Positions 5,301 to 20,132 of a DNA stretch of 24,071 bases are shown here, one piece after another. Position numbers and translations under genes: made by a program. The notes under the pieces were generated by a model, which was not told the DNA's origin, did not search any database, and saw nothing but the letters and a program-made list of their open reading frames with translations. The stretch lies in IMG/VR virus record IMGVR_UViG_2737471839_000014; one strand, given 5' to 3'. Each line of letters opens with the position of its first letter. Position 1 is the first letter of the stretch. The stretch comes from a virus (lineage: Duplodnaviria > Heunggongvirae > Uroviricota > Caudoviricetes).

Positions 5301-5411
5301 TTCTGCATCGCTGGCTGCACCATTCAGAAGGTTTTTGATACGGGGAATTTCATTTTTAAACTCTGCCGCATCAATCCCCAAATCAATGACCAAGTTGGCT
5401 ATCTGGTCCAT
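2346..5411 (-). CDS. H: tail tape measure protein (gpH-like)
   Basis: Track ORF 2346..5441 begins with TTG; in-frame ATG at 5411 preceded by GGAGGTG gives N-terminus MDQIANLVIDLGIDAAEF resembling lambda gpH; about 1021 aa, long coiled-coil-rich middle, Gly-rich C-terminus; between T and M. Confidence 0.9.
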   Translation of the reverse strand: MDQIANLVIDLGIDAAEFKNEIPRIKNLLNGAASDAERSSARMQRFMERQTQAARQTMQAASSAATAASVHAQTVEKSAQAHERMAREVEQTRQRMEALSQKMREEQAQAMALAEAQDKAAAAFYRQIDSVKQASAGLQELQRIQQQIRQARNSGGIGQQDYLALISEVTAKTRVLTQAEEEATRQKVAFIRQLKEQATRQNLSSSELLRAKAAQLGVSSAAEVYIRKMEQAGKATHSLGLKSAAARQEIGVLIGELARGNLGALRGSGITLANRAGWIDTLMSPKGMMLGGVIGGIAASVYGLGKAWYDGQKEGEEFNRQLSLTGHYAGVTAGQLWTLSRAISGNGITQHAAAGALAQVVGSGAFRGNDIGMVARAAAQMERSVGQSVSDTINQFKRLKDDPVNAAKALDNELHFLTATQLEQIRVLGDQGRSSDAARIAMSALAEETGRRTADIDNNLNALGSTLKYLSDLWSRFWDAAMNIGREDSLDEQIAALQEKVSRAKRLPWTASSSQVEYDQQRLNDLQEKKRQKDLQDAKEQAERNYQEQQKRRNAENAALNRMNETEAARHQREIARINSMQYADQAVRDAAIQRENERYEKALASGKKKTRETRNDEATRLLLQYSQQQAQVEGQIAAARQSAGIVTEKMTEAHKQLLALQQRISDLDGKKLTADEKSVLARKDELIQALTLLDVKQQELQKQTALNDLKKKTIQLTSQLAEEERAQRQQHDLDIATVGMGDQQRQRYQVQLSLRQKYQQQLEQLRRDSEQKGTYNTDDYRKAEQALTESLNRQLNENRRYWQQLEVVQGNWKNGVLRAFQDFTVDADNTAGTAEQVFSSAFSNMGNGLATFVTTGKLNFKSFTSSVLSDMAKILAQATMMKSIKGIGSVLGFDLSSLSLNANGGIYQSADLSRYSGTVVNRPTFFAFAKGAGVMGEAGPEAILPLRRGADGKLGVVADIGGSGMAMFAPQYNIEINNDGTNGQIGPAALKVVYDLGKKAAADFMQQQARDGGRLSGAYR

Positions 5412-6110
5412 AACGCACACCTCCGGAAATACCTTCCCCAAGATGCATCAGTTCTTCGTCCGTTCGCTCCGGTATCCCGTTCTCTTCCGGTAAAAGGCTG
5501 AAATCAGCCACCGCAGCATCACTGCTACCGGACACCATTCTCACGATCAATGCCTTCAGCGAGGCAAACTGCGCATCCATCCACACATCACTGAAGCTCT
5601 GCATCCGGAAATAATCGCCCCACTCACCAAGCTCAGTGGCCGACATTTCCGACAGCATCCGCCGCCAGTCTGCCCGCCGGAACTCCCGGGCAAGCCGCAT
5701 GACAAACTGCATTTCCCGCGTCAGGACTTTTCCGGCGTCAGCACCTCATGCTCCAAATCCCCGGCATTCTCAATGACTCCCATACCGCTCAGCGACAGAA
5801 CCATCTCCGCCCCCGCTCCCAGGGCATCATACGACCATGTTGTAATAACGGATGCGCAAAGCGTCTCAACATCCTGAGACTGTTCCGCATTCCACAGTGA
5901 GCGGGAAACCAGCCAGGCATTGATATCCATCCCCATCCGCAGAAAAGCAATCTGTCGTTCAGCCTCCGGCAGTTCTCCCTCTTCGGCATCAAACTTTGCC
6001 GTTCGCTGCTGAACAAACGCCAGATATTCAATTCTCTGCAGCCCGGACAGCTCACTGAGCACCACGGACTGCTTTTCATAATTAAACGTGCCCTGTTTCA
6101 GAAACATCAT
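5383..6110 (-). CDS. T: G-T tail assembly chaperone fusion made by programmed -1 ribosomal frameshift
   Basis: -1 frame relative to G is open from 5745 through the 109 aa T ORF (5383..5712); slippery-like GGAAAAG at 5733..5727 lies 4 nt before the G stop; same arrangement as lambda G/GT. Confidence 0.6.
5721..6110 (-). CDS. G: tail assembly chaperone G
   Basis: ATGATG at 6110/6107 preceded by GGTGGAG; product MMFLKQGTFNYE...SELSGLQRIEYLAF resembles lambda gpG; stop TGA at 5721-5723; track ORF is extended upstream because an earlier non-ATG codon is in frame. Confidence 0.85.
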   Translation of the reverse strand: MMFLKQGTFNYEKQSVVLSELSGLQRIEYLAFVQQRTAKFDAEEGELPEAERQIAFLRMGMDINAWLVSRSLWNAEQSQDVETLCASVITTWSYDALGAGAEMVLSLSGMGVIENAGDLEHEVLTPEKS

Positions 6111-6123
6111 GTTCTCCACCTGC

Positions 6124-6146
6124 AAAAAAGCCCCGGATAACCGGGG
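6124..6146 (-). terminator. intrinsic terminator-like hairpin between V and G
   Basis: minus strand reads CCCCGGTTATCCGGGG followed by CTTTTTT, immediately upstream of the G ribosome binding site. Confidence 0.45.
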
Positions 6147-6167
6147 CAAATGATGAGTATCGTCCTG

Positions 6168-8588: not shown

Positions 8589-10547
8589 TTACGCCGTACA
8601 TTTCACCAGACCGCGGTGATCAACTGGCGCGACACCGGCGTCAATACGCACTTTCGTTGTCACGCCATCCACACTGAAGCCCTCCATCTGATCAATATAT
8701 GGCGTATCCACACCGTTGAGATAAGCCACTTCAATCGTATCGGAGCCTTTTGACGCAGCCAGGTAGAAGGTGGTCTGGCTGTTATCATCAAGACGAGGCT
8801 CTGCAATAACGGTCGCAAAATCTTTCACCGGGTTAATAATACCGGCGTTAATGTCAGCCCCCTTGACACTTGAGGAGCGAATGACCTGGTTAGCAACAGA
8901 CTCCATCGCCGTCGGTACCAGTACGAACGCAGGACGAATATTCAGATGACGCTCCCCCTCTTTCTGAACGCGCATCAACTGGCGGGCTTTATCCAGCGAT
9001 GCCACGTCCATTGCAGCGCTCTCCAGTACGTTTGCATGTTTCGCTTTATCGAACAGACTTACATTATCTGTGGAGATTTTCGGGTTAGACGTCAGAATGG
9101 CATAAACCAGATCGGCAATAGTGGATTTCGCCGCACGGCCCAGTTTCATCGGGACATCGGTCAGCATATTCAGATCATCATTGATAATGGCCTGACGGGT
9201 GATACTGAACAGCTCGCCATAGGTCGCCAGTGCAATAGTGGCCTGTTTATCTCCGGTGGTGACGTATTTATATTCCGCCCCTTCACGCACCTGACGTAGA
9301 GCACTGAAGCCCCCCATACCCACACGATGGGCAATTTTAAAATCAGACAACTGACCTTTCCGCGTCCACTGTTCATAGGTTTCAGGGGCATCTTCCCAGC
9401 CCTGCAGAATGGCTTTGTTCGCAACATCCAGCAGAATATTACCGAAGTCAGACGTACTGTGTGTGAACGCCGCACCGACCATCTGCATCGGGTTATAACC
9501 GGAAACCCCAATACCCCGTTCAGTTAGTGACATACGGGCATATTCACGCAGGGTCATCCCGTTGTAGACATTATCACGTTCGGTTTTTTCAAATCCGGCA
9601 CGCGCCATCAGCGCCTGGCGAATCCCGTCCCCCACAAAATTACCGTTACCGGCATAAATATGAGCCGGGGTATTTTTATTGGATGGCGTGGACTCGCGCC
9701 CCATCTCGTTCAACAGCTTTTCACGGGCCTGCTCCAGCGAACATTCAGGATCGGCAAGACACTGGGCCTGCAGCGTCTGATAACGCCCGCCAAACATGGC
9801 AAACAGATCATTAATACCGTTTACACGCGCTTTTTGCTCTGCCAGTACCTGCGCACGGATACTGTTTTCATCCACCACGGGTGCTGCTGCCTGCACTGGC
9901 GTCCGGGAGGCTGCAGGTTCATCATCCTGTACGCGTGGAGCACTGTTGCGTGGCGGAGTAATCATGTTTCGAATGGATTCCGGCATCTTTTTAAATTCCT
10001 CTGTACGTTTTGACTGAATACATGCCATTGCCTTAACGGCTGGTGTCACCTGATCAGCAAATCCCTGTGCCAGACATTCGGCACCGGACATCCAGGTCTC
10101 ATCCGCCAGCATGGCAGCAATTTCATCGGTGGTTTTCCCGGTTTTCTGTGCATAAGCGGGTAACAGAACCGCCTCAACTTTATCGAGCAGGTCGGCATAG
10201 GTGCGCATGTCCTCCGCATCACCGCCCGTAAAGCCAAATGGTTTATGAATCATCATGAAGGAGTTTTCCGGCATAATGACCGGGTTTCCCACCATCGCAA
10301 TGACCGACGCCATTGACGCCGCCACACCGTCGACATAAACGGTAATGGACGCACCATGTGTTTTCAGTGCATTAAAAATGGCGATGCCTTCAAAGACATC
10401 GCCACCCGGTGAATTAATATGGAGATTAATGTGGGTGATATCGCCCAGTGCATTCAGATCACTGATAAACTGCTTCGCTGTAACACCCCAGAAACCAATC
10501 TCGTCATAAATATAAATATCCGCGTCACTCTGGTGACCTGCCTGCAT
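8589..10547 (-). CDS. ClpP-like prohead protease fused to HK97-fold major capsid protein
   Basis: single ORF; N-terminal region YIYDEIGFWGVTA...INSPGGDVFEG...MASVIAMVG has ClpP/S49-like protease motifs; long C-terminal region is capsid-like; ATG at 10547 is the first ATG after the portal stop; track ORF extends to 10808 in a frame overlapping portal. Confidence 0.8.
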   Translation of the reverse strand: MQAGHQSDADIYIYDEIGFWGVTAKQFISDLNALGDITHINLHINSPGGDVFEGIAIFNALKTHGASITVYVDGVAASMASVIAMVGNPVIMPENSFMMIHKPFGFTGGDAEDMRTYADLLDKVEAVLLPAYAQKTGKTTDEIAAMLADETWMSGAECLAQGFADQVTPAVKAMACIQSKRTEEFKKMPESIRNMITPPRNSAPRVQDDEPAASRTPVQAAAPVVDENSIRAQVLAEQKARVNGINDLFAMFGGRYQTLQAQCLADPECSLEQAREKLLNEMGRESTPSNKNTPAHIYAGNGNFVGDGIRQALMARAGFEKTERDNVYNGMTLREYARMSLTERGIGVSGYNPMQMVGAAFTHSTSDFGNILLDVANKAILQGWEDAPETYEQWTRKGQLSDFKIAHRVGMGGFSALRQVREGAEYKYVTTGDKQATIALATYGELFSITRQAIINDDLNMLTDVPMKLGRAAKSTIADLVYAILTSNPKISTDNVSLFDKAKHANVLESAAMDVASLDKARQLMRVQKEGERHLNIRPAFVLVPTAMESVANQVIRSSSVKGADINAGIINPVKDFATVIAEPRLDDNSQTTFYLAASKGSDTIEVAYLNGVDTPYIDQMEGFSVDGVTTKVRIDAGVAPVDHRGLVKCTA

Positions 10548-10560
10548 CCTGAACCAGGAA

Positions 10561-12069
10561 TTATTCTTCGGACTGGTCGTCGGTGTGCTGCGGCTCCTGT
10601 CGTTTCGTTGCGGCACTGCTGCCTCCTTTATCACTGGCCGGATCGGTATCAAATACCAGATCCAGCTTGCGGTTTTCATCAATTTCGGCCTTGCGCCGAC
10701 GTTTGACATCATCCGGATTACGACCACCTGCACGTACCCAGTCTGATTCTGTCGCCGCTCCACCACGAATCTGAATTTTCCAGGCCTCAGCCTCCTTAAC
10801 AGGGTCAATCCACGGCATCACCGGTCCGGAATACACCGCGGTATACAGTGAAGAACGATCAAGATCGCGGGGTAGCCTGATAACACCGGATGCCACAGCC
10901 TGTTTCAGCCAGGCACGATACATCGGGCGGGTGACGGCACCAATAAACCAGTCCTGCAGGATCAGGTAGCCATCAGTGGATTCAACCAGCTCCTGACGCT
11001 GGGCGCTGTAAGTGCCGTTATAGTTGCGTGCCGTACTGGAAAAACTCAGACGACTGCCCGCCGCCACGGCACGCAACTGACCATTACGAAAAGTTTCAAG
11101 GTTAGGATTGGGACGATCCGACTTCACCATTCCGATTTCTTCGCCGGGTTTCAGATCGTCGTAAATAATGCCTGGCTGAATGGTAAGCTCGCGTTCATTC
11201 TCCTTGCTGCCATTACCATCCGGTTCATAGCTCTGCCCGTCGCCTTTCCGGATGTACATCCCCAGAGCAGCGGCGATCCTTGCTGCAGTCAGCTCAGAAT
11301 CTTCATACTCTTTCAGGGCACTGAGGCGGATCAGCACACCGGACAACAAAGACGTCCCGCGCATCTGGTGCAGACGGCGAACAAATTTAAGATGCAGCAT
11401 TCGCTCTGCATCCACTTCTTTGGTTTCCATCTGCCGCCCGGATACGGGACGGCTTTTATACACCAGATATTTTTCGGGACGCCCCCAGTCATCAACAAAC
11501 ACGCCCTGATTCAGCCTGTTGCTCTCATCACTGGTCATGGGAATAAAGTCCGGCTCGAGCGCCTCCAGCCAGAAATGAACACCGGCAGAAGGCGTCAGGC
11601 TGTTTATGCGCCCGGAAACCATCTGGGCAAACACCTCACCATCGCGCAGCCAGGTACGCAGCATCAGACGTTCCAGCATCGGACGGGTAAACTGCCCGGT
11701 GACTTCCGGACTGACAGACCATTCACTCCATCGGGTGCGTATCTCCGCTGCCAGATCACGGGCAATGGCCCCATTGCGTAATACCGGATGTGGCTCGACA
11801 ATAATCCCGTTTTTCCCCACCACCCGTTCTTCCAGCTTGTCAAATACACCAATAACCAGATCGTGGTTGTTATCAAGGTAACGGGCCTGCTCACGTAACG
11901 ACACGGCCCCGTACTGGCTTAACTGGTCGGCAGTTCGGTTTTCCCGCCGGGCTTTGTGTGTCCGTGTCGTTTTTACGGCCTCATAAGCCTGGATCACCGC
12001 ACGGGAACGCAGCCTTGCCGCTTTCCATCCTGGTGAAAAAACGCCAATCACATCATCAAGAATTGCCAT
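10561..12069 (-). CDS. portal protein (lambda gpB family)
   Basis: about 502 aa; ATG at 12069 overlaps W stop; position between W and the protease-capsid gene; size and composition typical of lambda-family portal; track start at 12141 is a GTG. Confidence 0.85.
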   Translation of the reverse strand: MAILDDVIGVFSPGWKAARLRSRAVIQAYEAVKTTRTHKARRENRTADQLSQYGAVSLREQARYLDNNHDLVIGVFDKLEERVVGKNGIIVEPHPVLRNGAIARDLAAEIRTRWSEWSVSPEVTGQFTRPMLERLMLRTWLRDGEVFAQMVSGRINSLTPSAGVHFWLEALEPDFIPMTSDESNRLNQGVFVDDWGRPEKYLVYKSRPVSGRQMETKEVDAERMLHLKFVRRLHQMRGTSLLSGVLIRLSALKEYEDSELTAARIAAALGMYIRKGDGQSYEPDGNGSKENERELTIQPGIIYDDLKPGEEIGMVKSDRPNPNLETFRNGQLRAVAAGSRLSFSSTARNYNGTYSAQRQELVESTDGYLILQDWFIGAVTRPMYRAWLKQAVASGVIRLPRDLDRSSLYTAVYSGPVMPWIDPVKEAEAWKIQIRGGAATESDWVRAGGRNPDDVKRRRKAEIDENRKLDLVFDTDPASDKGGSSAATKRQEPQHTDDQSEE

Positions 12070-14380: not shown

Positions 14381-14874
14381 TACTCCTCCTGCTGTAATTC
14401 CTCCTCATCATCCGCACCTGCTTCAGTCACCCGCAGGGCTATCTGATCGCGCAGATCATCAATAATGGACTGAACACGGCTCACAGCGGCAGGCTGCAGA
14501 CCGCAGTCACGTTCAAGAATATCCGGTAATGTCTCCAGCACCTGCACGACCGCTTTTGCCCAGATGGCAAACTCCCGTCTGACATCACTGGCCGGAATGA
14601 GTTGTGCCGTTTCCTGTTCGAACTTAAGACGCTCACGTTCAGACTGATACCAGGCTTTGCGCTCATGCGCGTCCATTTCGCCTTCTGCAACCGGCGGTGG
14701 TAATGCCAGAAATGCCGACACAATATCAACCACCCGATAAAGCTTGAGGTTGCTTTCATGCCCCCCTGCAACGGGTAGATTTTGCAGCCTTGCCGCAGCA
14801 GTCTGGCGATGTACACCTGACAATGCCGCCAGTTGACTGATATTCAGCGTCAGATTTTTTAACTCTCGATCCAT
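14380..14874 (-). CDS. terminase small subunit (Nu1-like)
   Basis: 164 aa; N-terminal HTH-like LTLNISQLAALSGVHRQTAAARLQNLPV resembles lambda Nu1 N-terminus; acidic C-terminus; ATG at 14874 with GGAG SD; about 185 nt downstream of candidate cos. Confidence 0.75.
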   Translation of the reverse strand: MDRELKNLTLNISQLAALSGVHRQTAAARLQNLPVAGGHESNLKLYRVVDIVSAFLALPPPVAEGEMDAHERKAWYQSERERLKFEQETAQLIPASDVRREFAIWAKAVVQVLETLPDILERDCGLQPAAVSRVQSIIDDLRDQIALRVTEAGADDEEELQQEE

Positions 14875-15037
14875 ACCCGCTCCAGAATGTTTTAAACATG
14901 CATCTTGCGAACAACTTTAGGCAAACGGTGTTAGTGATGAACAAAAAACAATCAGAATCGACACCATAAAAATAAAACCACTGTAATATCAATCAATTAC
15001 AGTAGTGGTGATGACGAATAAAATTTCAAAAACTAGC

Positions 15038-15072
15038 CTTTTTCCGCGACGCTCCCGCCCCGTGGTAGGGAC
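15038..15072 (-). other. candidate cohesive end site (cosN-like)
   Basis: minus strand reads ACCACGGGGCGGGAGCGTCGCGGAAAAAGG, close to recalled lambda cosN TTACGGGGCGGCGACCTCGCGGGTTTTCGC; distance to the Nu1-like start is about 185 nt as in lambda. Confidence 0.4.
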
Positions 15073-15426
15073 CCCCACTGGGAGGACCCGACAGCCTGAC
15101 AACCGTTACGAGCATCTGAAACAGAGCTTTACATAATGGCATGGGGATAATTCAGAAGGACATCACAGCATGCCCACACAAATTAGTGTGAGTGTCCTGT
15201 TTCTTACTACGCGCAGGACTGACGAGCATGAGGGGAAAATACGCGAACCGAAATGCCTTATCTTCAGAAATGCAGCCGGCATCCGAACTGGACGATATTG
15301 TAAATTCACCTAAATACGAGGCATTGCTGTAGTTGAATTGCAGTACTGTATTAGCCTTACAGTGACAGAATACGATATTGACTCTGTCACTTGTGAAATG
15401 GTCAGAATGGTTAGCAGTTATGGTGA

Positions 15427-15633
15427 TCAGTCAACCACCAGGGAATAATCCTTCGTATTCTTATCGTGCTTTACTAACGCGGCCTCAATTGCCCTGAATG
15501 CTTCCAGAGATACTTGATGTTCTATACATGCAATTACAACATCCGGGTAACCCATCGAAATGGTGCTATTAAGCATAGTTTTTACACGAACCTGCTCCTG
15601 GGAGGGGGCATCAGTGTATTGATCTTTATGCAT
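15427..15633 (-). CDS. hypothetical protein (moron between lysis genes and cos)
   Basis: 68 aa ORF; ATG at 15633 preceded by GGAG at good spacing; no recognised domain. Confidence 0.45.
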
Positions 15634-15840
15634 TTTGTCGCTCCATTCGTTTGCTCTTCACTTGCGGCTAAAAATATAACGTCAAATCACTCAGCATGAA
15701 AGAGTGAAAGTTTCAGCGCGTTTCCCTTACATAATCTGTCGTTTGTATTCTCTTCAGGCATACCGGAAAGACTAGGTATTGTCACACAACCAATACCATC
15801 GACAATCGAGATTTATATCTATTCGGTAATGTTTAAATAT

Positions 15841-15863
15841 AACAAAACCCCGTAAAAACGAGG
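15841..15863 (-). terminator. putative intrinsic terminator downstream of gnsB-like ORF
   Basis: minus strand CCTCGTTTTTACGGGG followed by TTTTGTTATATTT. Confidence 0.4.
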
Positions 15864-15928
15864 TTTATGGGTAATTTGTATTGTTGAATAGCATCTGATG
15901 AGAAATTGATGCTAATACTATAAACATG

Positions 15929-16101
15929 CTAGATTAAATCAATCTTGATATCATAGCTTTCAAGACCAGTCATTTTTTCCCGTGCAGTAAACTGGATACT
16001 GGTAACTTCTTTCCCGGTCTTTTTCTTAAGCTCAATGATTTTTTTTGTTATATATTCAGAAATATCTGCTTCTGTTTTTGTTTTTAACTCTTCAATGTTC
16101 A
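15929..16101 (-). pseudogene. gnsB-like small protein gene, apparently frameshifted
   Basis: ATGATG at 16104/16101 after GAGGAA; reads MNIEELK, hits stop after 17 codons; a second frame continues KTKTEADISEYITKKIIELKKKTGKEVTSIQFTAREKMTGLESYDIKIDLI to TAG at 15929; one extra A in the A4 run would give an intact 57 aa GnsA/GnsB-like protein (family assignment from memory). Confidence 0.4.
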
Positions 16102-16274
16102 TCATTTCCTCTTTTAGTCTGTTATGACTGTCCTAGTACACAGTAGTGTCAATTATATGGAGCAAACGTATAAAAGATAAGATGAAACATCGCAATAATC
16201 AACATACGACGGTCTAAATTTCACACAAACAGATAAAGATGATTATCATTTATTATCAATGCATTAGAATCAAA

Positions 16275-16466
16275 TCAATTCAAGAGTCTCATTGCTGCTT
16301 CCAGAATTTCTTCTGAAGTTACATGTCGATCCGCTGCTACATAAATGACTTTATGATCTCCGGTCAGAGATGGAAACCCTGCAGCCATTACAGTGAGGTG
16401 TGTTGTTTCGCCATTTGGATATTCACGCATGATGGTGTTAACTCCGGTCATCACTGGCACTACCAT
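16275..16466 (-). CDS. hypothetical protein
   Basis: 63 aa ORF, ATG at 16466 but no obvious SD; no recognised domain. Confidence 0.35.
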   Translation of the reverse strand: MVVPVMTGVNTIMREYPNGETTHLTVMAAGFPSLTGDHKVIYVAADRHVTSEEILEAAMRLLN

Positions 16467-16546
16467 TGCTGGTTCAGAGTTAAAAAAACTATTATTTTTT
16501 TCATAATGTTACCGTAATATGTGAGTATCCATCGACTAGACACTAA

Positions 16547-16569
16547 GCAAAAAAGCTCCCGAAGGAGCC
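16547..16569 (-). terminator. putative intrinsic terminator
   Basis: minus strand GGCTCCTTCGGGAGC followed by TTTTTTGC; about 200 nt downstream of the csp stop. Confidence 0.45.
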
Positions 16570-16775
16570 TTCATTTTCACTTTCTTAAATCTAACGACAG
16601 ATGGCTAACATTTAAGTATTGTGAAATATTATCAAATGTAATCATCATTGATTTACAAAAGATACATTTTGCCCCGAAAGGATTTCTGTCAGAAACATCA
16701 AAAGATGATGTTCTATACTGAGAACCATGGCAACACGGGCATCTAAAGTGAATATGGTTTGTAATATTTTCTACC

Positions 16776-16988
16776 TCAAAGTGCCACTACATGAACAGCT
16801 GCAGGGCCTTTAGGTCCGTTCTCAATACCAAATTCGACTTCCTGATTCTCAGTTAACGTTTTGAAATCGTTGCTCTGAATAGCTGAGAAATGCACAAACA
16901 CATCTTTGCTACCATCTTTCGGCGTGATGAAACCAAAACCTTTTTCAGGGTTAAACCATTTCACTAAACCAGTCATTTTGTTAGACAT
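16776..16988 (-). CDS. cspI: cold-shock protein, CspA family (CspI-like)
   Basis: 70 aa [38 protein letters not shown]... with canonical cold-shock domain motifs (RNP1-like KGFGFI, VFVHF); ATGATG start at 16991/16988; long AT-rich 5' leader typical of csp genes. Confidence 0.85.
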
Positions 16989-17351
16989 CATTATTACCTT
17001 TTGAAGAAGTTAGCCCTTGGGCAGAATGGTCCGAAAAAAAATATCAGAGAGAAAAACCAACAAGGAAATCTCAAGAGGTACAAATAATAAAATTATAACA
17101 ATGACTGCTTCAGATAATTTTGTAACAAACCAGAACACCATTAACGCATGATTAACCAACCATAGCAAGGATTACTTTTGTAAAGAAAAACACACGAATG
17201 AAACAATAGCTTTATTTATTAATAAAACGTGTCATTCTGTCTAATGACCTTTTATCTTACCCTTAAGATTTCAAGGATTTTGACTCATGGAAGAGTCCTT
17301 TTTATTTAAATTTCACATTCAGCGCTAAAAATAATCCGATTTAATATTAAT

Positions 17352-19157: not shown

Positions 19158-19553
19158 CTAACCTCGCATGTCAAAGCCAGATTTCTGAAAATCTCTGTAG
19201 ACTTCCGGATTGTTGAAGGCCGGAAATTTGGCTTTATGAGCTGCGGACTTTATCGCTTCGCAATAGGCTTTATCACCGTTACTGGTAGATATTTTTAACG
19301 CCGTGCCATCCTGAGAGAATTCCATATGCAACCTGCATTTTTTCCCTTTCCAGTTATGCGGCTCATCAAGTTTGGCATTAATTGCAGCTCTGATTCCCCG
19401 CGCTTGCGCCCCCCATTCATCCTGATCATCCCAGCGTCCTGAACTGCAACTACCTGTAGCAGTAGTTTTGTGGCAATCTGAAGGGTGTAAAGGTGTGCAT
19501 CCCGCAACAAAACCGACCCAAAAAGTCAACATAACGATTTTCTTTAATCCCAC
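19158..19553 (-). CDS. lipoprotein with diverged TolA C-terminal domain III-like fold (paralog 2)
   Basis: 131 aa; GTG start at 19553 with GAGGAG SD (alternative ATG at 19532); signal peptide with lipobox VAGC; C-terminal half ...KGKKCRLHMEFSQDGTALKISTSNGDKAYCEAIKSAAHKAKFPAFNNPEVYRDFQKSGFD shares spacing of Cys pair and Gly/Asp positions with paralog 1 and TolA domain III. Confidence 0.75.
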   Translation of the reverse strand: MGLKKIVMLTFWVGFVAGCTPLHPSDCHKTTATGSCSSGRWDDQDEWGAQARGIRAAINAKLDEPHNWKGKKCRLHMEFSQDGTALKISTSNGDKAYCEAIKSAAHKAKFPAFNNPEVYRDFQKSGFDMRG

Positions 19554-19703: not shown

Positions 19704-20132
19704 TCAGGGTTTAAAATCCAGCACCCCATTTTGAAATACTTTATATACTTCCGGCGAAGGGGGGGCAGGTATATCAGCATTCTTTATCGCATTCATCGCT
19801 TCACGACATAAATCGAGGTATCCACTTTCTCTTTTAACCTCCAGTAGAAGGCCATTCGGGGCCATATGCATTCTCAGTGTACACTCTTTTCCTGAATACT
19901 TACTCGCATCCCCGAACTGTTTTTCGATGGCGCTCTTGATTTGATGGGCATACAGACGGATATCCTCACTAACATCAGAAGTACGTTCAGATGAACTCAC
20001 ATACTGTGTCTCTATTGCTTTATCGGAGTAATATGATGTACGGTCATGATAATTTGTCGATACAGCATCAGTGCACCCGATAATAATCCCACTAATAATC
20101 AACGTAAGAATTGATGCGCTACGAAAACCCAT
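19704..20132 (-). CDS. lipoprotein with TolA C-terminal domain III-like domain (paralog 1)
   Basis: 142 aa; ATG at 20132 with GAGGA SD; signal peptide MGFRSASILTLIISGIIIGC (lipobox IIGC, Thr at +2); C-terminus YAHQIKSAIEKQFGDASKYSGKECTLRMHMAPNGLLLEVKRESGYLDLCREAMNAIKNADIPAPPSPEVYKVFQNGVLDFKP aligns with recalled E. coli TolA C-terminus YAGQIKSAIESKFYDASSYAGKTCTLRIKLAPDGMLLDIKPEGGDPALCQAALAAAKLAKIPKPPSQAVYEVFKNAPLDFKP. Confidence 0.8.
   Translation of the reverse strand: MGFRSASILTLIISGIIIGCTDAVSTNYHDRTSYYSDKAIETQYVSSSERTSDVSEDIRLYAHQIKSAIEKQFGDASKYSGKECTLRMHMAPNGLLLEVKRESGYLDLCREAMNAIKNADIPAPPSPEVYKVFQNGVLDFKP

Follow-up and report, generated by a model that had tools for sequence, protein, structure and literature searches.

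A lambda-like cos site lies directly ahead of the terminase genes in the window, the whole 24,071-nt stretch of viral DNA that we analyzed, and very probably serves as the functional packaging site of an intact-looking Qin-like/mEp460-like lambdoid prophage of E. coli. The first-pass annotation had proposed such a site, and the proposal is borne out by a core matching lambda at 16 of 22 positions together with a cosQ element, an IHF site and the terminase context (Table 1). It had also read the divergent 12-nt cohesive end as a possible sign of altered terminase specificity for cos. That part did not hold up: all four changes fall within the tolerant base pairs 7-12, and Gifsy-1 carries a nearly identical end. 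The divergence from lambda is of a kind already documented as natural and tolerated; the site is real but ordinary. Its end sequence is already implicit in GenBank records of 2007 and 2022 and belongs to a very common, sequenced phage type.

The cosN core and its predicted cohesive end

The 29-nt sequence CCACGGGGCGGGAGCGTCGCGGAAAAAGG occurs once in the window, on the minus strand at 15037-15065, and contains the putative cosN. We compared this core position by position with lambda cosN, TTACG/GGGCGGCGACCT/CGCGG (taken from J02459; slashes mark nicks), and found 16/22 identical positions, a score reached nowhere else when both strands of the window were scanned. When the window was resampled with a first-order Markov model, 13% of the resamples had one or more matches of 16/22; taken alone, the similarity of the 22-mer to lambda cosN is weak and not significant. 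We rejected a chance resemblance on context despite this frequency, since the call is carried beyond chance by cosQ, the IHF site in cosB, the adjoining terminase genes and the identity to the cdtI and Tritos genomes. The window cosN follows the ACG/GGGCGG....../CGCGG pattern of lambda-like cos sites, with GGGCGG as its left half and CG dinucleotides at both nick positions, as in lambda. These conserved CG flanks are exactly 12 bp apart, the spacing also found in lambda, N15, phi80 and Gifsy-1; the ends of the latter three were confirmed from sequence records. Relative to the lambda end, GGGCGGGAGCGT is changed at positions 7, 8, 9 and 11, all in the right half (bp 7-12). The right end would be ACGCTCCCGCCC, the complement of GGGCGGGAGCGT, on the plus strand.

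The predicted nicks are placed by homology and by the ends of deposited records. The linear record of Tritos (OV696610), a plaque-forming prophage of E. coli LF82, starts GGGCGGGAGCGTCGCGG / GGGCGGGAGCGTCGCGGAAAAAGGCTAGTTTTTG and ends ...GGGTCCT(N19)ACG (...CCACG). The cdtI record (AB285204) is filed as circular, but it is opened at the Tritos record junction and its first 33 nt equal the window. The deposited cdtI and Tritos genomes agree with the window without mismatch over 33-34 nt from the predicted left end, and the opening of the one record and the end of the other imply the same cohesive end that had been predicted at first reading. The boundaries of these records may themselves have been set by homology; the Tritos paper makes no statement on how its genome ends were chosen. 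In the Ayreon announcement, cos packaging was predicted from TerL phylogeny and the genome was opened at TerS. We found no report of direct end mapping for the window's cos type in the accessible literature, and literature string searches with the 12-mer, its reverse complement and neighboring variants returned no phage paper.

Table 1. Predicted cos elements and terminase genes of the window; positions with a plus sign are counted from the predicted left end.
Feature	Coordinates	Strand	Sequence	Remarks
Small terminase (TerS), 164 aa	14380..14874	-		DUF1441 / PHROG 141; family match
Large terminase (TerL), 700 aa	12278..14380	-		gpA family, ATPase and endonuclease domains (PF05876 + PF20454)
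Candidate R1	14931..14940	-	TCATCACTAA	+121 to +130
Candidate R2, inverted	14958..14967	+	TCGACACCAT (plus strand); ATGGTGTCGA (minus strand)	+94 to +103
IHF site (I1 equivalent)	14987..14999	+	TATCAATCAATTA	Perfect against WATCAANNNNTTR; +62 to +74
Candidate R3 (TerS binding site)	15005..15014	-	TCATCACCAC	+47 to +56
cosN-to-cosB spacer	15027..15043	-	AAAAAGGCTAGTTTTTG	Alignable with lambda bp 18-34
cosN 22-bp core	15044..15065	-	CCACG/GGGCGGGAGCGT/CGCGG	16/22 against lambda; nick-flanking CG pairs kept
Predicted 12-nt 5' cohesive end (left end)	15049..15060	-	GGGCGGGAGCGT	Equals first 12 nt of Tritos and cdtI records
Predicted nick, minus strand	15061/15060	-		From homology and OV696610/AB285204 record ends
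Predicted nick, plus strand	15049/15048	+		From homology and OV696610/AB285204 record ends
cosQ-like heptamer	15083..15089	-	GGGTCCT	22 nt upstream of predicted top-strand nick (lambda 23 nt)

cosQ, cosB and the terminase module

The cosQ element is highly conserved in lambda-like phages (PMC4669245), and its length of 7 bp and its distance from the nick in the window fit the lambda-like arrangement, in which it lies about 20-25 bp upstream of cosN. The heptamer is invariant in 54/54 distinct copies with the window's cosB type, where the flanking upstream columns are 40-90% conserved; GGCTCCT takes its place in 3/120 IMG/VR copies. On the other side of cosN, the spacer aligns with lambda bp 18-34, known in lambda as the I2 segment. 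It is unchanged across at least four cosB/TerS types, whose sequences diverge directly past +34; within one of the copy sets, its conservation through +24 is built in by the search pattern.

Past the spacer, candidate elements are arranged like the cosB of lambda and N15. Candidate R3 agrees in position with R3 of lambda (bp 50-65) and N15 (bp 48-60; PMC9026076), and it was aligned to CATCATC, a repeat in Fels-1 and VT1-Sakai. The 24 kb contain just two perfect IHF consensus sites, one of them inside the predicted cosB and surrounded by an 11-nt inverted repeat (arms 14977-14987 and 14996-15006). Where copies vary at this site, the changes are at N positions of the consensus, and most aligned cosB types carry an ATTGAT-type element at the same place; Gifsy-2 has a near match only, on the other strand. 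Candidate R2 was aligned to the inverted GATGATGAT of Fels-1 and VT1-Sakai, and candidate R1 to Gifsy-2 TTCGACACTGAA and Fels-1 TTCATCATC, with a T-run preceding all three. Gifsy-2 has its own inverted arm, TTCAGTGTCGAA, which gives the same R2-R1 arrangement at an offset in the alignment; TTCAGTGTCGAA and TTCGACACTGAA form a perfect 12-nt inverted pair. The pattern TC[AG][AT]CAC[CT]A, a motif defined post hoc, occurs three times in the window, always in cosB (+47, +94 and +121) and in direct-inverted-direct order. At aligned positions the R-like motifs vary in concert by phage, being CATCATC in Fels-1, CACTGAA in Gifsy-2 and TC(A/G)NCAC in the window, and the triplets of the relatives (Fels-1, VT1-Sakai and Gifsy-2) are much clearer than the window's own. 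With the same reservation about the motif, the orientation and positions of the candidate R elements fit the R3-I1-R2-R1 array of lambda and N15 (PMC9026076, PMC4669245). A 78-aa ORF overlapping cosB (14756-14992) had no family match and was taken as spurious.

The TerS start codon, an ATG at 14874, falls on base 187 when counting begins at the predicted left end (lambda 191), and the 186 nt that precede it agree with the distance of about 185 nt given by the first-pass annotation. Its description of this gene as Nu1-like needs correction. In a profile scan, TerS matched DUF1441 (PF07278) at E = 2.7e-41 and did not match Phage_Nu1 (PF07471), to which lambda Nu1 scored 2.5e-100 in the same scan; BLASTP found no similarity between TerS and Nu1 (E = 20). 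TerS may have an N-terminal helix-turn-helix; residues 3-33 gave weak HTH_30 and HTH_3 matches. Residues 9-47 were aligned by hhalign onto residues 2-42 of the Nu1 wHTH, weakly (8.6% probability), with the common pattern N..QLA...G....T.........PV..GG...N..LY. This weak profile alignment hints at DUF1441 as a remote relative of Nu1. A single-sequence AlphaFold model of TerS (pLDDT 64, N-terminus <50) was too poor for a fold search.

TerL is 25% identical to lambda gpA, 99.9% to its mEp460 counterpart and 99.3% to those of Ayreon and phi458. As in lambda-like phages, TerS and then a gpA-family TerL follow directly after cos. The window and Ayreon align as one piece of 14,899 nt on both sides, at 98.8% identity and with no net indels, and we saw no frameshifts in the ORF map of the window. 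The 14.9-kb head/tail module, like the terminase, is essentially the same as in the plaque-forming phages Ayreon and mEp460, at 98-99% identity. Given the TerL identity to mEp460 and the colinearity with Ayreon, the packaging genes look intact, as had been claimed.

Several further features of the window were recorded. A long ORF at 8589-10808 (minus strand) codes for a ClpP-like prohead protease fused to a major capsid protein (Gifsy-2/mEp213 head type) and overlaps the end of the portal gene; at 5383-6149 (minus strand), a tail assembly chaperone G/T pair is arranged like the lambda G/GT programmed frameshift. Two adjacent moron-like ORFs located upstream of the lysis cassette (19158-19553 and 19704-20132, both minus strand) carry TolA C-terminal domains, and the annotation of a close genome relative lists one of the two as a truncated tolA pseudogene. 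The interval that separates the lysis genes from cos holds small Qin-like moron genes (15633-17350, minus strand), with a gene for a CspI-like cold-shock protein at 16776-16991 and, by comparison with an annotated relative, ynfN-, ymcF- and gnsB-like ORFs. A YbcW-like ORF at 15427-15633 and the stretch from it to about 15280 are 84% identical to the lambda right end.

By analogy with lambda, we infer how proteins contact the DNA at this cos and what part IHF plays. The DUF1441 TerS, together with an IHF-induced bend, would bind the R3-I1-R2-R1 array of cosB (14931-15014), and this binding would position the gpA-family TerL on cosN. TerL would then nick each strand just 3' of the conserved CG, 12 bp apart, and the staggered nicks would leave GGGCGGGAGCGT as a 5' overhang on the terminase-proximal (left) end. 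Nicking in the right half would be governed by cosB anchoring rather than by sequence, so that this half would be free to drift. It is more likely that packaging specificity resides in the pair of cosB and the small subunit than in cosN.

Natural variation and alternative readings

To describe natural variation we used 120 IMG/VR copies chosen by their window-type cosB, not by cosN. The 12-mer is GGGCGGGAGCGT in 86 of these and GGGCGGGAGCGG in 22, next to a handful of other alleles. Nearly all substitutions are at positions 7, 11 and 12, and 118/120 copies retain GGGCGG as the left half. Natural differences at bp 7-12 are common in lambda-like phages, with N15 differing at 9 and 12 and Gifsy-1 at 8, 9 and 11; cosQ is preserved in them, as are the left half and the CG flanks (PMC4669245). 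The Feiss laboratory described the cosN right half as naturally variable and phenotypically tolerant; in lambda, C11G has no phenotype and the symmetric G2C change lowers yield about ten-fold (PMC4669245). To judge from the aligned copies, the window-type variation is this same asymmetry.

The cosQ-cosN-spacer core (-28 to +34; window 15027-15089) forms a conserved island in about 240 IMG/VR and metagenome copies. An identical core precedes at least four cosB types, and every one of these is paired with a DUF1441 TerS variant of its own. Module types on the upstream (right-arm) side and on the downstream (cosB/TerS) side reassort independently across the core, in a sample that is redundant and was chosen on a 24-mer. 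The core appears to act as a mosaic junction. The 321-bp region around the site has matches in 2,103 of 5,426 complete E. coli genomes, and the IMG/VR matches to the site are mostly prophages within isolate genomes. None of the 120 site-bearing metagenome contigs starts at the predicted nick, in a search whose pattern is blind to filled-in right ends. A few of the 120 end 8-49 nt from the predicted nick, which fits assembly-graph breaks at the prophage-shared core rather than physical ends.

Could the divergent right half reflect a co-evolved endonuclease specificity, such that lambda-type and window-type terminases do not cut each other's cosN? We consider this unlikely. It is true that the right half departs from lambda at four of its six positions, that TerL and gpA share only 25% identity, and that GGGCGGGAGCGT is the clear majority allele within its own cosB type, which could reflect constraint. 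Against this, Gifsy-1 pairs lambda/21-type Nu1 and gpA homologues with the end GGGCGGCAGCGT, which equals the window's at 11/12 positions; the TerLs of mEp213 and LLS are 79.6% identical to the window's and go with GGGCGGCGCGCT, which differs from lambda's end at only 2 positions but from the window's at 5; and TerLs that are 99% identical occur with both T12 (...GCGT) and G12 (...GCGG). From these pairings, the right half does not follow the TerL lineage. The Gifsy-1 end in particular counts against co-adaptation of cosN and TerL, and altered cosN specificity is therefore not indicated. Lambda genetics also argues against it, since right-half changes such as C11G are silent and the lambda and N15 terminases lack cosN specificity (PMC4669245). 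Gifsy-1 had been considered as a member of the window's TerL clade, an assignment that we rejected because its record shows a lambda/21-type terminase. A more speculative idea, to which we give little credence, is that right-half variants define annealing-compatibility groups of co-circulating lambdoid phages, with GGGCGGGAGCGT marking one large exchange group. If so, a common 12-mer could let phages exchange arms at cos through end-joining or recombination, and hybrids and cos-pirating satellites would lose fitness where ends do not match.

Two other readings concern the cut itself and the state of the prophage. The exact nick register in the clade is not beyond doubt, given the 25% identity of TerL to gpA and the relatives in which the conserved ACG and CGCGG flanks are 14 nt (Gifsy-2, GGTGGCTTCGGGCT) or 11 nt (VT1-Sakai) apart, and some clade members may, with low probability, have a different register. 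Also, the circularly contiguous record LR595868 (mEp460_4F5) has its opening point 4 nt upstream of the predicted nick, and three nucleotides (TCG) are missing precisely where the bottom strand would be nicked, a pattern that resembles an assembly artefact produced where the physical DNA ends. Even so, we find it improbable that the window's cos is cut in another register or with an overhang other than 12 nt, so that its true end would not be exactly GGGCGGGAGCGT. Its CG flanks have the 12-bp spacing of the known ends, and the Tritos and cdtI records are cut exactly at the lambda-equivalent position. Nanopore sequencing of virion DNA from LLS (TerL 79% identical) gave reads that halted before the homologous cos, where the authors annotate a 12-nt 5' end, GGGCGGCGCGCT. 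Less probable still is a relic, a cos no longer used in a defective prophage. Our view is limited to 24 kb of the prophage, which has Qin-like lysis and moron genes, and many E. coli lambdoid prophages are defective, such as Qin in K-12. However, the cos core is the majority allele, the ORF map shows no frameshifts, and the whole 14.9-kb module, with TerS, TerL and portal, matches plaque-forming phages colinearly at 98-99% identity. As a separate observation, in the Salmonella phages Gifsy-2 (NC_010393) and Fels-1 the sequence AGGTACT takes the place of the cosQ GGGTCCT seen in the E. coli phages; together with the flank spacings of Gifsy-2 and VT1-Sakai, this suggests a cosQ variant, and possibly another overhang length or register, in part of the TerL clade.

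Relation to known phages

Read as a functional cos, the site matters mainly for annotation. RefSeq leaves cos unannotated and labels TerS "DUF1441 family protein"; marking the one and naming the other would aid the definition of prophage boundaries and the reporting of linear virion genomes, and would help to predict which prophages or satellites could be co-packaged. The site adds a natural example of the known cosN asymmetry, in which constraint acts on the left half and on cosQ but not on the right half, and it exemplifies a modular split between a common nicking/termination core and exchangeable cosB/TerS specificity modules.

The window shares with phages of the cdtI/Tritos/mEp460 type the common cosQ-cosN-spacer core, a DUF1441 TerS and a TerL at least 87% identical. 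cdtI, Tritos, phi458, PhiR47_1 and HannyBb all have GGGCGGGAGCGT between CCACG and CGCGGAAAAAGGCTAGTTTTT flanks, cosQ GGGTCCT 22 nt upstream, a DUF1441 TerS and a gpA-family TerL 87.5-99% identical to the window's. Unlike the window, cdtI, Tritos and HannyBb have another cosB and a TerS that is about 30-40% identical, whereas phi458 combines the window's 12-mer with the window's cosB type. mEp460 and Ayreon are 98-99% identical to the window across the terminase, head and tail genes and have the same cosB type and the same cosQ, but mEp460 differs in its cohesive end, GGGCGGGAGCGG (T12G), and is about 87% identical upstream of cos. The Salmonella phage Gifsy-1 resembles the window in its end and in cosQ GGGTCCT, and departs from it in the lambda/21-type terminase, in another cosB and in having C rather than G at position 7. 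Lambda itself shares the cosQ heptamer, the GGGCGG left half, an IHF site between R3 and an inverted R2 (both candidates in the window), a TerS start about 190 bp from the end and a TerL of the gpA family. It differs from the window in the end at bp 7, 8, 9 and 11, in a cosQ 1 nt farther from the nick, in unrelated R-site sequences, in a TerS that is Nu1 rather than DUF1441 and in a TerL only 25% identical.
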